Assembly (NCBI GenBank): GCA_021734995.1 | Contig: JAIPHX010000006.1 | Coordinates: 1 to 51,810 of the forward strand | DNA: 51,810 bases | Source: Minisyncoccota bacterium | Lineage (GTDB): Bacteria > Patescibacteriota > Minisyncoccia > Phycocordibacterales > UBA9973 | Reading direction: 5' to 3' | Shown: piece by piece, positions 5,772-46,571 of the stretch | Position numbering within the stretch: the first letter of the stretch is position 1 | Layout of the letters: the number at the start of each line of letters is the position of its first letter | The notes under the pieces: model-generated | Seen by the model: only the letters and a program-made list of their open reading frames with translations | Databases searched by the model: none | Told to the model about the DNA's origin: nothing | Made by a program: the position numbers and the translations under genes

Positions 5772-6266
5772 ATGAATAAGAAAGGTTTTACTCTGATAGA
5801 ATTGCTAGTTGTTGTTGCAATTATTGGTGTATTGTCTAGTGTTGTTATTGGATCAGTCAATAAATCAAGAGTAAAAGCAAGAGATACACAACGTTGGAAT
5901 GATATTGTCCAAATACAAAATGCACTAGAACTTTATTATTCTGATTTTGGACATTACCCAAAAAGATTTTGGGCACAGACTACAGGTGTTTCAGGTGGAT
6001 GTCTTGACGGAAATTCACAATGGTGTGATTTACAAAATGATTTAACTCCGTATGGATTAAAAAAAATTAGTGACCCGCAAGGTGTTGGTAATTATGATCA
6101 ATATTATTACAGATCAACTGTTGGAGATAACTATCAAACATATGGTTTTATGCTTCGTTTTGAAGATTCGGCAAATATTGCAAAACAAGCTACAGACGGA
6201 GGATATAGTGCCTCTTATTACGAAGTAGGGCAAAGGCCAAGGTTATTGTATGACAAAATATCCTAA
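5772..6266 (+). CDS. Type IV pilin/pseudopilin; C-terminus probably lost through a frameshift (intact end at 6336)
   Basis: KKGFTLIELLVVVAIIGVL class III signal peptide. The +1 frame from about 6241 reads GYCMTKYPKIPPAVSSWWGSSDSFVCLNDGN* with two Cys. Confidence 0.88.
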   Translation: MNKKGFTLIELLVVVAIIGVLSSVVIGSVNKSRVKARDTQRWNDIVQIQNALELYYSDFGHYPKRFWAQTTGVSGGCLDGNSQWCDLQNDLTPYGLKKISDPQGVGNYDQYYYRSTVGDNYQTYGFMLRFEDSANIAKQATDGGYSASYYEVGQRPRLLYDKIS

Positions 6267-6450
6267 GATCCCTCCTGCTGTTTCTAGTTGGTGGGGTAGT
6301 TCAGATAGTTTTGTTTGTCTCAATGATGGCAATTAATAAATTAGTTTTTAAATTCATTAAAAAATGTACAGATATGTTGTTTTTTCTGTTGCTTTTAATT
6401 ATTTAAAAAAGTAGTATAATTTGTGTATTATAATTTAATTTATATTTTAT

Positions 6451-6717
6451 ATGACAATTGATAAAAATGGTATGGAAAATTTTAAGATACCCAATCAAGT
6501 TGCATAAGATGCTCTTACAGAAAGATTTGATCCTAAAACAAATCTTCCTGAGTCTAGATTAATAGAGCTAGAAGCAGATCTAGAACAAAGAAAAGAACAA
6601 GAATCTGGAAAACCTAATGATAATGGGCATTACTTACAAGAATTAGCAGAAAGAGAAGCAAAAATAAAAGAGATTAGGGAGAGAATAGAAGAAAGTTATA
6701 AAAAAGGTACTAATTAA
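6451..6717 (+). pseudogene. 88-codon coiled-coil-like ORF interrupted by an in-frame TAA
   Basis: MTIDKNGMENFKIPNQVA*DALTERFDPKTNLPESRLIELEADLEQRKEQ...KKGTN*. The stop is at 6505-6507 and the reading continues in the same frame. A TAGTATAAT promoter-like element lies upstream. Confidence 0.6.
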
Positions 6718-6723
6718 TTTTTT

Positions 6724-6751
6724 TTGACATTTTTTTATCTTGTGTTATATT
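6724..6751 (+). promoter_or_regulatory. Sigma70 promoter of attenuator leader
   Basis: TTGACA 6724-6729, 16-nt spacer, extended -10 TG-T-TATATT (6746-6751); ATG follows 6 nt later. Confidence 0.7.
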
Positions 6752-6757
6752 CATATT

Positions 6758-6835
6758 ATGATATTAAAAATTAAAAACATAAATAATGTTCGTCGCACAA
6801 TCTCAAAATTTGAGGTTGTCTTCGAGTGTTTCTAA
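6758..6835 (+). CDS. Putative attenuator leader peptide MILKIKNINNVRRTISKFEVVFECF
   Basis: Leaderless ATG. Tandem Arg codons CGT CGC (6791-6796) sit directly before hairpin segment 1. Confidence 0.6.
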   Translation: MILKIKNINNVRRTISKFEVVFECF

Positions 6836-6891
6836 TTTTTTACTATAATAATTAAACTTTCCAAAACAGCCTCAAAAGAGGTTGTTTTTTT
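6797..6891 (+). promoter_or_regulatory. Four-segment transcription attenuator (1:2, 2:3, 3:4 terminator)
   Basis: seg1 acaatctcaa 6797-6806; seg2 ttgaggttgt 6810-6819; seg3 acagcctcaa 6866-6875; seg4 gaggttgt 6878-6885 followed by a T7 tract. Confidence 0.72.
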
Positions 6892-6926
6892 CTGTGTGAT
6901 ATTTAATAGTTAAAAATAAAAATAAA

Positions 6927-8600
6927 ATGAAAAAATTAAAATTAGTTATAGTTGGGGCAGGTCCTAAAGCTCTTAATATTCTAGCTAAGGCCCAAGCTTT
7001 AAAAAATAATGGTTGGGATGTTCCAGAAATTATTGTATTAGAAAAAAATGAAATTGGAGCAAATTGGTCTGGTAATTATGGTTATACTGATGGAAAAGGA
7101 GTCTTGGGTATTTCTCCTCTCAAAGTTTTTAATTACCCATCTAAATCTATTTTTGGAGAAGCAGTTATTTCTGATATGGATAAATATTCTTTTATAAAAT
7201 ATCTTACTCATACTGAAGGTCTTGAAAAGTGGGTTGATGGAGGAATGGGGTGGATCTTACATAAAGAATTTTCTGATTATCTAAAGTGGATAGGAGGATT
7301 TTTCCCTAAGAATATTTGTTTTGGAGAGGTAGTAAAAGTAAATACAAAAAACAAGCAATGGATTGTGACTTATAAAAATAAAAATAACACAAAAGAGATT
7401 GTGTGTGATGGTCTGGTATTTACTGGTCCAGGAGAAATATCAAATCCTTTTCCTATCAAGCCTGATGGTATAAGAGTGTTTGACGCAAAGAATTGGTGGA
7501 AAGATAAAAAAGATATTAATTTCTATGGAAAATTAGCTTTAATAGGAGGTGGAATTTCAGCAGGATCAATATTTGAATCTATCAGTAAAGATATGCTCAC
7601 TTTAGACTGGTATTCGAGGAGAGGATTGTTTACAAGAAGTGAAAATTTTGCTAACAATCAAAGATTCTCTGTCCCTGATTTGTGGCAACAGGTTCCTTTT
7701 TCTGTTAGGAAATCGTTTATATCTGCGACAGATAGAGGTTCTTTGGATTCAACAACACACAATTATATGGTAGCCAGTAGTCATTCTTTCAAGGAAATAA
7801 TTTGCGAGATAAATAAGGTAGAGATAATTGATAAAAAAATTAAAATCTCTTTTAAAGATGGTTTAAATTATAAAGAAAGGATTTATGACCAAATAATTTT
7901 GTGTACTGGTTTTGATAATATGGGTTTTTTAAATCTTTTTGCTGAAAACATAAAAAAAGAACTAAAAGAAAATATTGAAGAAAAAATTGAACCTGATTTA
8001 TCCGTGCTTGGATTAATTCCAAAATTATATTTACCAATGCTTTCTTATTTAAACGTTGGTATAGGATGTGCAACATTAGGTAGCCCATCAATTATGTCAG
8101 ATAGAGTATTGTCTTCTTTGGTTTCCAAGAAATCTAATTGTGAGAAAAATAAAAATGTAAAAGTATTCAAAGGAAGTTTGAAAGGAGATTATTTGATAGC
8201 ACAAAAAACTTTTTCCGCTGGAGAAATTTTAGTAAATGGGTATGCAACAAAAATCAGTACGCAAAGGACTACCACTTCTGTGCAAATAGGTATTGATTTA
8301 CACATGGAACCTTCTTTCTTTTTTGTAAAAGCAAATCATAGTTGTAATCCAAATTGTGGTATAAAATTAAATAATTCTGGTGGTTATTCTTTAGTAGCAA
8401 TGAAGGAAATAAAAAAAGGAGAAGAAATTACTTGGGATTATGCAATGTCAGAATGGGAGTCTATCGCGCTTGAAAATACGAATTGCAAGTGTGGTAGTTC
8501 TATTTGTAGAGGTGCTGTTGGTGGATATAAAGATTTATCACTAAAAATAAAACAAAAATACATTGGTTTCACTGCTCCATATCTAAAATATTTGGAATAA
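6927..8600 (+). CDS. Fusion: MbtG-like (SidA/IucD/PvdA family) flavin-dependent lysine N6-monooxygenase + SET/post-SET methyltransferase
   Basis: N-terminal VIVGAGPKA FAD motif, GANW..GYTDG...SP, IGGG NADPH motif, FTR, TDRG and PKLYLP..SDRVL all match my recollection of mycobacterial MbtG. The C-terminus has NHSCNPN, EEITWDY and CKCGSSICRG, the SET/post-SET signatures. Confidence 0.85.
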   Translation: MKKLKLVIVGAGPKALNILAKAQALKNNGWDVPEIIVLEKNEIGANWSGNYGYTDGKGVLGISPLKVFNYPSKSIFGEAVISDMDKYSFIKYLTHTEGLEKWVDGGMGWILHKEFSDYLKWIGGFFPKNICFGEVVKVNTKNKQWIVTYKNKNNTKEIVCDGLVFTGPGEISNPFPIKPDGIRVFDAKNWWKDKKDINFYGKLALIGGGISAGSIFESISKDMLTLDWYSRRGLFTRSENFANNQRFSVPDLWQQVPFSVRKSFISATDRGSLDSTTHNYMVASSHSFKEIICEINKVEIIDKKIKISFKDGLNYKERIYDQIILCTGFDNMGFLNLFAENIKKELKENIEEKIEPDLSVLGLIPKLYLPMLSYLNVGIGCATLGSPSIMSDRVLSSLVSKKSNCEKNKNVKVFKGSLKGDYLIAQKTFSAGEILVNGYATKISTQRTTTSVQIGIDLHMEPSFFFVKANHSCNPNCGIKLNNSGGYSLVAMKEIKKGEEITWDYAMSEWESIALENTNCKCGSSICRGAVGGYKDLSLKIKQKYIGFTAPYLKYLE

Positions 8601-8649: not shown

Positions 8650-9138
8650 TTATAGAGATTTAATCTTTACAGTGGACTTCTTGTCTCTATCTATTTTCTT
8701 TAGTTTGATAGTAAGCAAACCATGTTTTTCGGTAGCTTCTGCTTCTTCAGGTTCTACTTCTTGAGGAAGGGAAATGGTACGAGAAAAGCTACCCCAATAT
8801 AGCTCTCTAGTAAAATAGTTGTCATCATCTATAGCTTTACTTTCTTCTCTTTTTCCTTTAATACTGATCAAATCTCTACCAATAGACAGCTCTAAATCTT
8901 CTGGGCGTACTCCTGCTACCATTGTCTGTATTACAATATCAGTATTGGTCTGGTATACATCTACAGCGAGCTCAGCGTCTTCGCTTTCTTCTTCAATCCA
9001 CTCTACGCCGTTCTTCTTATCTTCTTTGGTAAGTTTTACTTCTTCTTCTTCATAATCTTCTTCCATACTACCAATACCCGCTAACTTTTCAAAAAAACTT
9101 CTTTTTTTATTTTGCATTTTATTTTTTGTTGAAAACAT
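8650..9138 (-). CDS. Small heat-shock protein (Hsp20/alpha-crystallin)
   Basis: LAVDVYQT..GVRPEDLELSI..IKGKR..RELYWGSFSRTISLP..GLLTIKL; acidic N-terminal arm. Confidence 0.93.
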   Translation of the reverse strand: MFSTKNKMQNKKRSFFEKLAGIGSMEEDYEEEEVKLTKEDKKNGVEWIEEESEDAELAVDVYQTNTDIVIQTMVAGVRPEDLELSIGRDLISIKGKREESKAIDDDNYFTRELYWGSFSRTISLPQEVEPEEAEATEKHGLLTIKLKKIDRDKKSTVKIKSL

Positions 9139-35134: not shown

Positions 35135-35143
35135 TTATCCACA
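35135..35143 (+). promoter_or_regulatory. Consensus DnaA box
   Basis: TTATCCACA upstream of mraZ. Confidence 0.55.
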
Positions 35144-45044: not shown

Positions 45045-45084
45045 TTCTCGTGCTAGCTCTAGAAGGGTGCTCTTATTAGGGGTC

Positions 45085-45113
45085 TTGTAACTTAGCAATA
45101 TCTGAATTATAAT
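45085..45113 (+). promoter_or_regulatory. Sigma70 promoter of trp leader
   Basis: TTGTAA 45085-45090, 17-nt spacer, TATAAT 45108-45113; ATG 6 nt later. Confidence 0.8.
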
Positions 45114-45119
45114 AAAAAT

Positions 45120-45179
45120 ATGTTAAGAAAAAGCAATTATATCAATATAGCATGGTGGACAGCTCACATAAGTGGGTAG
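45120..45179 (+). CDS. trpL: trp leader peptide MLRKSNYINIAWWTAHISG
   Basis: Tandem TGG TGG at 45153-45158, upstream of trpB. Confidence 0.88.
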   Translation: MLRKSNYINIAWWTAHISG

Positions 45180-45244
45180 TCTTTGTTGTATTTATAATTA
45201 TTTTTAAGTAATACATGACAACCCACATAATTGTGGGCTTTTTT
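45158..45244 (+). promoter_or_regulatory. trp attenuator
   Basis: seg1 gacagctcac 45158-45167; seg2 gtgggtagtc 45172-45181; seg3 gacaacccac 45217-45226; terminator cccaca-taat-tgtggg followed by T6. Confidence 0.88.
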
Positions 45245-45365
45245 ATTTTCTAATTAAACCTATATGAATAAATTTATTTTTAAACAACATTGTACTGAAT
45301 TCTGGCGTAATTAAGAAACGTTTAGTTTTTACATTACTATTTTAAAAAATAAAAATATAAATTAT

Positions 45366-46571
45366 ATGAAAACAGAAATAAAATCATTAAAAAATTTACC
45401 AGATGAAAATGGGTATTACGGAAAATTTGGAGGAAGTTTTATTCCTCCTCAATTAGTGGAACCATTAAAAGAAATAGAACGAGAATATTTAAAAGCGAAA
45501 AATGATCCAGAATTTCAAAAAGAATATGCTGATTTACTAAAGAATTATGTTGGCCGTCCTTCACCACTTTATTTTGCAAAAAATATAACAGAAAAATTAG
45601 GTGGAGCAAAAGTATATTTAAAACGTGAAGATTTAAACCATACTGGCGCCCATAAAATAAATCACTGTCTAGGGGAAGTACTTCTTGCTAAAAGAATGGG
45701 GAAGAAAAAGGTTTTAGCTGAAACTGGAGCAGGGCAACATGGAGTTGCTTTGGCTACAGCTGCAGCCTTACTTGGTCTTGAGTGTGAAATTCATATGGGT
45801 TCTATTGATATAGAAAAACAACAACCAAATGTTATTCGTATGAAATTACTCGGAGCAAAAGTTGTAGAAGTTAATACAGGGGGTAAATGTCTTAAGGATG
45901 CAGTGGATAGTGCTTTTGCAACATTTATAGAAGAATACAAGACTACATTTTTTGCAATTGGTTCTGTAGTGGGACCTCATCCATATCCGATGATAGTGAG
46001 AGATTTTCAATCTATTGTAGGGAAAGAAGCCAAAAAACAAATATTGGAACAAGAAAAAAGATTACCAGATTATATAATCGGTTGTGTTGGTGGTGGATCA
46101 AATGCGATTGGATTATTTAATGAATTTCTTGATGATGAAGTTAGCCTTATCGGAGTGGAGCCAGCAGGCAGGGGTTCAGGTATTGGTGAACATGCTGCTA
46201 CTATTACATATGGAACAGAGGGTGTAATACATGGTATGAAGACTATTGTATTGCAAGATGAAAAAGGAGAGCCAAATAGTGTTCACTCTATTGCATCAGG
46301 GTTAGATTATCCTGGTGTTGGACCTATTCATGCTTACCTCAAAGCTATTGGAAGAGTCGAATATACTTATGCAAGTGATGATGAAACGATAAAAGCATTT
46401 TTGGAATTATCTAAGGTTGAGGGAATTATTCCAGCTCTTGAAAGTGCTCATGCAGTAGCGTATGCGTTGAAACTAGCTTCAACTCTAAGTAAAGATAAAA
46501 TCATAATAGTTAATCTTTCTGGTCGTGGAGATAAAGATATTGATTATGTAGCTTCATTATTAAAAATATAA
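45366..46571 (+). CDS. trpB: Tryptophan synthase beta chain (stand-alone in window)
   Basis: [10 protein letters not shown] (PLP Lys), [30 protein letters not shown] and NLSGRGDKD. Confidence 0.98.

Follow-up and report, generated by a model that had tools for sequence, protein, structure and literature searches.

Ribosome-mediated attenuation is a textbook mechanism, and leader open reading frames (ORFs) carrying Arg codons have been described in several settings. In Salmonella, orf34 of the speF leader contains two consecutive Arg codons, and pausing there in low arginine selects an mRNA structure that raises expression; its read-out comprises Rho-dependent termination, unfolding of the ribosome-binding site (RBS) and sensitivity to RNase G, and speFL also senses ornithine via the nascent peptide (PMC6386406). 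In Staphylococcus aureus, rbfL contains rare AGA/AGG Arg codons served by scarce tRNA-Arg, and a ribosome paused at them blocks the RBS that follows (PMC13009471). A report on mycobacteria presents leaderless poly-cysteine short ORFs as Cys-responsive attenuators (bioRxiv 10.1101/834739). Here we describe a leader from a Minisyncoccota bacterium (Patescibacteriota; GenBank assembly GCA_021734995.1, contig JAIPHX010000006.1) that is very probably a class I ribosome-mediated transcription attenuator on a leaderless mRNA, reporting the charging of CGN-reading tRNA-Arg. It lies upstream of a gene for a monooxygenase fused to a SET domain (monooxygenase-SET). Position numbers are those of the whole 51,810-nucleotide (nt) stretch of DNA analysed (the window), and all features are on the plus strand unless stated. 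To our knowledge, almost nothing has been learned so far about gene regulation in candidate-phyla-radiation (CPR) bacteria.

In the mechanism that we propose, transcription would start at or beside the ATG (6758), and translation of the 25-codon leader by a 70S ribosome would begin immediately. With ample Arg-tRNA, the ribosome would reach the stop codon, the hairpin between segments 1 and 2 (1:2) and an outer helix (P0) would re-form behind it, and segment 3 would pair with segment 4, giving termination near 6891 and an RNA of about 134 nt. With scarce Arg-tRNA, the ribosome would stall with CGT or CGC in the A site, and its footprint would melt P0 and segment 1; the freed segment 2 and the 3' arm of P0 would capture the emerging segment 3 and its upstream flank, no terminator would form, and polymerase would read into the monooxygenase-SET gene. 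Without translation of the leader, the long hairpin would sequester segment 2 and the terminator would form. A stalled ribosome covers roughly 13 nt downstream of the P site; as a purely geometric argument, one that holds CGC in its A site would mask segment 1 and leave segment 2 free. The coordinates of these features, together with those of the regulated gene and of a second leader in the window, are collected in Table 1.

Table 1. Features of the arginine leader, its regulated gene and the second candidate leader in the window
Feature	Position	Strand	Basis or remark
-35 hexamer TTGACA	6724-6729	+	read from sequence
-10 hexamer TATATT with upstream TG (extended -10)	6746-6751	+	spacer 16 nt
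Leader ORF MILKIKNINNVRRTISKFEVVFECF, 25 codons plus stop	6758-6835	+	ATG 6758-6760, stop 6833-6835
Outer helix P0, 5' arm (codons 4-8)	6766-6780	+	minimum free energy (MFE) fold
Control codons CGT CGC (Arg-Arg)	6791-6796	+	abut segment 1 directly
Segment 1 (ACAATCTCAA)	6797-6806	+	pairs with 6810-6819: 10 bp, 3-nt loop
Segment 2 (TTGAGGTTGT)	6810-6819	+	common to 1:2 hairpin and 2:3 antiterminator
Outer helix P0, 3' arm (includes stop codon)	6826-6840	+	MFE fold
Segment 3 (ACAGCCTCAA)	6866-6875	+	3' arm of antiterminator, 5' arm of terminator
Segment 4 and T7 tract	6880-6888, T7 to 6891	+	intrinsic terminator 6863-6888 plus T run
Regulated gene, monooxygenase-SET fusion, 557 aa	6927-8600	+	Pfam domains
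Second putative leaderless leader-peptide attenuator, 5' of trpB (45366-46571)	45075-45250	+	Trp-Trp

The promoter matches at 11 of 12 positions and is the top-scoring promoter-like site within 6300-7100 in a promoter scan. A TTGAC(A/T/G) hexamer is found at the same distance in the related leaders L122, L024, L124, L018, L020, L021, L131, L132, L134, L135 and L144. The leader ATG stands exactly 6 nt past the -10 box, without a Shine-Dalgarno site, and the mRNA is probably leaderless; in most loci whose promoter was inspected, the start codon falls 6 to 7 nt past a recognisable -10 box. A first-pass annotation of this DNA had read the TTGACA-16-TATATT promoter, the ATG 6 nt later, the 25-codon ORF and the CGT CGC pair immediately 5' of segment 1, and we find each of them where it had placed them. 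It had also named a start further downstream, for example from the TATAAT at 6844, among the findings that would refute its reading. We rejected that site as a promoter: it has no -35 partner, is unlisted by the scan and is absent from homologous leaders.

The tRNA genes that read CGN codons in this genome have the anticodons GCG and UCG (C5:64950-65023 and C6:140415-140487), and no ACG (inosine-type) tRNA-Arg is present among the 35 tRNAs that ARAGORN found in the genome. Because of that absence, both CGT and CGC in the leader are read by the single GCG tRNA. In the genome as a whole, Arg is encoded by AGA in 56% of cases, by CGT in 17% and by CGC in 6%; across related leaders, 41/45 of the codons in the Arg run are CGN, a minority type in the window's genome.

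The mutually exclusive stems 1:2, 2:3 (10 bp) and 3:4, the last followed by T7, are present as the first-pass annotation had drawn them. The terminator is the sole terminator-like site in the scanned region, where 0.1 would be expected by chance. Folding of the RNA from 6758 to 6895, which had been suggested as a check on the original reading, bears it out: the predicted structure reaches -33.3 kcal/mol (z = -5.39), and 0/200 shuffles were as stable. In this fold P0 encloses the Arg codons, which in the absence of a ribosome lie in an internal loop of one long hairpin. The antiterminator exceeds 10 bp, in that 6821-6830 also pairs with 6855-6864, using the 3' arm of P0 up to 6830. With segment 1 masked, what is left of the RNA adopts the 2:3 antiterminator as its MFE structure, both in the window and in L122, L024, L124 and L021; in the window this pairing does away with the terminator. 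A helix equivalent to P0 is predicted in L122, L024, L124, L020, L021, L130 and L142, but its register in the L020 group is shifted by 2 columns relative to the window's group, and P0 is therefore excluded from the covariation support. Rfam leader families gave no match at the gathering threshold in the window and only chance-level matches (E > 0.08) in 6267-6930; the same search found neither a T-box (RF00230) sequence nor a stem I specifier in the window.

Comparison with relatives supports the device. Because the full-length monooxygenase-SET gene is absent from 60 close relatives, we turned to metagenomic homologues: six full-length homologues from a protein search (50-65% identity) and loci from scans of the collection make up eight distinct loci. 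The gene is patchily distributed, and the leader accompanies it at 8/8 of these loci, i.e., wherever upstream DNA was obtained. All but L022 have a -35/-10 promoter and a start codon 6 nt past the -10 box. The leader ORFs are 25-33 codons long (the peptides MVSKITNAQNRRRTISRFEVVLERL and MNTFHAQINNRRRATYNLRALESVCVKK are examples); segments 2 and 3 are of the TTGAG and CCTCAA types, respectively, a terminator is present, and an in-frame CGN CGN (CGN) occupies codons 11-13 (17-19 in L022), immediately 5' of segment 1. Conservation of the Arg-Arg codons and covariance upstream of homologues, another check that the first-pass annotation had put forward, thus yielded a leader ORF, an Arg run and compensated stems at every locus. 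A homologue that consists of the monooxygenase only (P0008, L125) has no leader upstream.

Covariation was assessed in a MAFFT alignment of the eight leaders and in a second alignment of 16 sequences, made with a model that lacks the 2:3 helix. In the former, the 2:3 antiterminator is 93.8% paired, with 3 doubly changed pairs, versus 29-48% in slid controls, in which the partner strand was displaced by 1-3 columns; in the latter, it is 95.2% paired versus 28-46%. Stems 1:2 and 3:4 together are 81% paired with 7 doubly changed pairs among the eight sequences and 85% paired with 9 doubly changed pairs among the 16, and 0/500 shuffles reach the score. Two columns of segment 2 alternate between U and C: column 62 covaries with columns 40 and 132, column 60 with columns 42 and 134, and each of these partner columns alternates between A and G. 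Covariation of one strand with both of its partners reads as the signature of a strand common to alternative helices.

Several features point to reading of the ORF codon by codon. Across the homologues, CG is invariant within the Arg run and the third base alone varies. Differences in the length from the start codon to the Arg run are multiples of three in the alignment (+6 in L142, -3 in L131 and L143), and in L022 the run comes six codons later than in other leaders. An in-frame replacement separates the window from its nearest relative, with AAT GTT CGT CGC ACA in the former and AAT CGT CGC CGA ACA in the latter. The first-pass annotation had placed the stall at (NNV)RR; the Arg run is indeed universal in the homologues, but the Asn and Val codons before it are not general.

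The leader also belongs to a wider family. Searches with covariance models (R1 and R2) covered Patescibacteria samples drawn by phylum, by class and by order, each comprising about 400 genomes; the window's own genome holds one copy, and further copies were found at all three levels. The matches L133, L136-L140 and L145 were discarded, as they look like terminator-only or coding-sequence false positives. In a relative, an Arg-run (RRR) version of the scaffold precedes argS (L144, MKTIQTILLIRRRNSESISGIVC). Others precede seven GNAT acetyltransferases (L135, L143, L149, L150, L151, L154 and L156), two homologous pyridoxal phosphate (PLP) enzymes (L132 and L134), an AstE/AspA-like gene adjoining an arginase-family gene (L142/L147), and two proteins of unassigned family: one of 181 aa in L131 and one of 188 aa in L153, for which Pfam gave no significant match. 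The scaffold is also found with other codons: with PSPTP it precedes an amino-acid kinase that is ProB-like in appearance (L158), and with FIYYFF it precedes prephenate dehydratase, pheA (L146). Within the window itself, the leader 5' of trpB has a TATAAT box, a gap of 6 nt, an ATG at 45122, the ORF MLRKSNYINIAWWTAHISG followed by a stop, and the terminator CCCACATAATTGTGGGCTTTTTT; its geometry matches that of the Arg leader, as the first-pass annotation had remarked of the Trp-Trp codons there. On these sequences, the identity of the control codons appears to track the cargo wherever the function of the cargo is known.

Two further family members are L157 and L155: among them, an S-P-R-P version of the scaffold precedes a short amino-acid-kinase-like protein, and the leader of an asparaginase gene (QINIFMRYNT) has no Arg run. 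(L158, L146, L157 and L155 are from genomes G860, G795, G1135 and G1152, respectively.) In G343, a genome of the same genus as the window's, a complete leader (L130 1441-1640, C1:145078-145215, and L148 4217-4560; 104 bits; VKNMITNFQNRRRTISKFEVV and a stop) has no protein gene behind it. It is followed by a non-coding stretch of about 300 nt that is richer in G+C and ends in its own terminator, and then by a toxin-antitoxin-like pair on the opposite strand. The stretch has no Rfam match and holds no remnant of the enzyme gene. This orphan is either a remnant or a trans-acting RNA.

The match between codons and cargo supports a sensor of hungry codons, and it is not what would be predicted if the nascent peptide itself were the sensor or if the RNA switched on its own. 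The former could come about if a peptide of the form ...N-R-R-R-T/A... stalled the ribosome by acting jointly with free arginine, ornithine or some metabolite related to them, in the way that speFL arrests with ornithine and the fungal arginine attenuator peptide with arginine; such a device would turn the gene on by abundance, not by shortage. Within the monooxygenase-SET group, the Arg run does lie in a partly conserved context (QINNRRRAT, NAQNRRRT), and polyamine genes adjoin monooxygenase-SET in relatives, an arrangement that recalls speF. Beyond the Arg run, however, the peptides have little likeness across cargo groups, and the residues that follow the run are dictated by the RNA stems. 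Furthermore, the CGN bias points to a particular tRNA rather than to an amino-acid residue, and the occurrence of Pro, Phe/Tyr and Trp versions before matching genes, and of Arg before argS, fits starvation sensing. We consider arrest by the peptide improbable. Control of the hairpins by an RNA-binding protein or ligand, for instance at the CGNCGNCGN triplets, with the ORF being incidental, would have a precedent of the TRAP type, in which triplet repeats serve as protein-binding sites. It would leave without explanation a start codon fixed 6-7 nt past the -10 box, a stop codon that is always present, a frame preserved through length changes of 3, 6 and 18 nt, Arg codons that vary in their third positions alone and codons that match the cargo (Arg, Pro, Phe and Trp); nor is there any match to an Rfam family. 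This explanation strikes us as very improbable indeed.

Another possibility is that the leader has an additional, or even its main, function in trans, exerted by the RNA of about 134 nt as a small RNA or by the 25-aa peptide as a small protein. The trp leader RNA and peptide of Sinorhizobium (rnTrpL/peTrpL) reportedly do so, and the G343 orphan described above is a complete copy kept without a protein gene. Nevertheless, that orphan could equally be what is left after deletion of a cargo gene, and its ORF stops earlier owing to a 1-nt deletion. All other loci tightly link the leader to a downstream gene in the same orientation, and no target complementarity was seen, although none was sought. 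We think it unlikely that action in trans is a substantial part of what the leader does.

An attenuator that senses the charging of tRNA-Arg remains our preferred reading, and a number of points weigh against it. Segment 2 is followed by the stop codon at a distance of 14 nt; termination would therefore rely on the kinetics with which 1:2 (and the outer helix) refolds, not on masking by the ribosome. Thus, the earlier proposal that translation to the stop gives termination is supported, but by way of 1:2 re-forming and not of a ribosome covering segment 2. The ribosome-free MFE structure is already the antiterminator in L020, L021, L132 and L134, and the default state may therefore differ between members of the family. 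The window's copy has two Arg codons where most relatives have three (the run is CGN x2-4 across relatives). The alignments comprise 8-16 related sequences, and the shuffles ignore kinship, an effect that the controls do not fully remove; the slid controls, however, retain the relatedness and yet score clearly lower than the true pairing. The monooxygenase-SET gene has no established link to arginine and in relatives merely neighbours polyamine-type genes; in L020, moreover, a strong terminator and a promoter-like site separate it from the decarboxylase unit. Finally, we infer the transcription start, leaderless translation and the efficiency of termination from sequence alone, and stalling, the switch and induction of the enzyme by arginine shortage are deduced in turn.

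As for the regulated gene, Pfam assigns to its product a flavin-dependent N-hydroxylating monooxygenase (Lys/Orn oxygenase family) and a SET methyltransferase domain. The best match of the monooxygenase domain in the PDB is the L-lysine N6-monooxygenase NbtG (4d7e; 5.6e-42), and that of the SET domain (8190-8600, residues 426-545) is BurB (9l4t; 1.8e-8), ahead of histone lysine methyltransferases. BurB is a small-molecule methyltransferase, which hints that this SET domain may methylate a small molecule rather than a protein. By similarity, the NbtG-like hydroxylase and the BurB-like SET domain suggest that the enzyme may modify a small amine of the lysine, ornithine or diamine type. In three homologous loci, monooxygenase-SET comes after dnaK-dnaJ and before an Orn/Arg decarboxylase and a deoxyhypusine-synthase-like gene.

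The window corresponds to contig C4 in an assembly of 10 contigs and 789 kb, with an estimated completeness of 97% and 32.9% G+C; at every rank from genus through family, order and class to phylum, the related genomes measure 0.4-1.1 Mb. This genome encodes a 67%-identical Orn/Arg decarboxylase on another contig (C2) and argS (C6), both without a leader; no homologue of the deoxyhypusine-synthase-like, arginase, AstE-like, PLP-type or GNAT genes was found in it. Argininosuccinate synthase (argG) and arginine deiminase were likewise not found in the genome by searches to which control genomes responded, and the charging of Arg-tRNA should therefore reflect imported or external arginine.

A broader reading, which we find plausible but would not yet favour, is that this leader scaffold is modular and serves as the main amino-acid sensor of Saccharibacteria and other Patescibacteria, with the Arg version defining an arginine-starvation regulon that includes monooxygenase-SET. 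Exchange of the control codons would turn one and the same fold into a sensor of Arg, Pro, Phe/Tyr or Trp, and the regulon would comprise argS, the recurrent GNAT, the PLP enzymes, the AstE-like enzyme and the monooxygenase-SET fusion. The last would then be part of the response of arginine-auxotrophic episymbionts when host-derived arginine runs out. For example, it might modify an amino acid or a polyamine to give a product by which arginine is spared, salvaged or elicited.

Several features of the surrounding DNA deserve mention in their own right. Upstream of the leader promoter, 6451-6717 holds an 88-codon frame (MTIDKNGMENFKIPNQVA, an in-frame TAA at 6505-6507, then DALTERF...KKGTN and a stop) that looks like a decayed gene, and the stretch that holds the leader-gene unit, flanked by a pilin-like gene at 5772-6266 and by hsp20 on the minus strand at 8650-9138, may be degraded or inserted. 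Perfect matches to the DnaA-box consensus (TTATNCACA) are found in L018 (3651-3659), L020 (3745-3753) and L021 (2136-2144), in each case just upstream of the leader promoter and after the dnaJ terminator; in L125 (270-278), directly after dnaJ; and in L142, some 45 nt ahead of the ATG of the leader. No such box occurs near the window's leader, the only two in the window being at 35135 and 40963. In the gap between terminator and gene, a motif (T)TCTTTAACAATTAAAA without a Shine-Dalgarno sequence is present in L024 (337-360), L124 (241-268) and L122 (277-307), and the window has a degenerate form, TTTAATAGTTAAAA, in 6892-6926. This motif may be a translation-initiation or unstructured landing region.

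L022 differs from the other loci in what precedes its Arg leader (2066-2228). Directly upstream, at 1793-2050, lies a T-box (RF00230; E 9e-10, its 49 bits falling short of the gathering score, 93) with the sequence AGGGUGGUACCGCG and its own terminator, so that two tRNA-charging sensors stand in tandem. In the Rfam alignment, its stem I is collapsed to a mini-hairpin with the loop AAUAAGCGCG. An Arg specifier is possible, given CGC with G as the next base, and the UGGU bulge agrees with a discriminator A. A free fold of this T-box was uninformative (z = -1.6).

If the switch works as we read it, reduced, arginine-auxotrophic cells monitor the charging of Arg-tRNA directly and respond at the level of transcription, and translation of leaderless mRNA is integral to regulation in them. 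The control codons would then act as a functional label for genes of unknown function; monooxygenase-SET, the recurrent GNAT and several PLP enzymes would be tied to arginine shortage, a connection that is hence testable. The leader family would further offer a natural series in which one RNA scaffold has been re-targeted to different amino acids.

In the published literature that we searched, we found no terminator/antiterminator leader keyed to arginine and no attenuator in Saccharibacteria or other Patescibacteria. The first-pass annotation had called the element undescribed; this holds for an arginine leader of the terminator/antiterminator type, but not for Arg-codon leaders as such, given speF orf34 and rbfL with their other read-outs. 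Like orf34 and its Escherichia coli counterpart speFL, the leader described here has an Arg-Arg ORF and, in some homologous loci, a polyamine-related neighbourhood; it differs from orf34 in using a competing intrinsic terminator and antiterminator, and the two have no sequence similarity. With rbfL it shares a leader peptide whose Arg codons sense arginine limitation. However, rbfL acts by translational repression, whereas the present leader uses CGN codons, and stalling at them is predicted to activate transcriptional read-through. As reported, the mycobacterial poly-Cys ORFs resemble it in placing the sensing ORF at a leaderless 5' end and in reporting amino-acid supply to downstream genes through runs of one codon type; they concern another amino acid and another phylum. 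T-box riboswitches, including arginine-specific ones, similarly sense uncharged tRNA and switch a terminator/antiterminator pair, but the Arg leader has neither a T-box nor a tRNA-binding stem I, and its sensing would proceed through translation of the ORF. The closest likeness in architecture is to trpL, hisL, leuL, thrL, pheL and ilvL of enterobacteria: a short ORF with tandem control codons just 5' of or within segment 1, mutually exclusive 1:2, 2:3 and 3:4 hairpins, an intrinsic terminator, and read-through when the cognate charged tRNA is scarce. Unlike these, the leader described here would sense arginine, is apparently leaderless and lacks a Shine-Dalgarno site, has a stop codon that falls beyond segment 2, within an additional outer helix, and precedes, in a CPR bacterium, a monooxygenase-SET gene instead of a biosynthetic operon.

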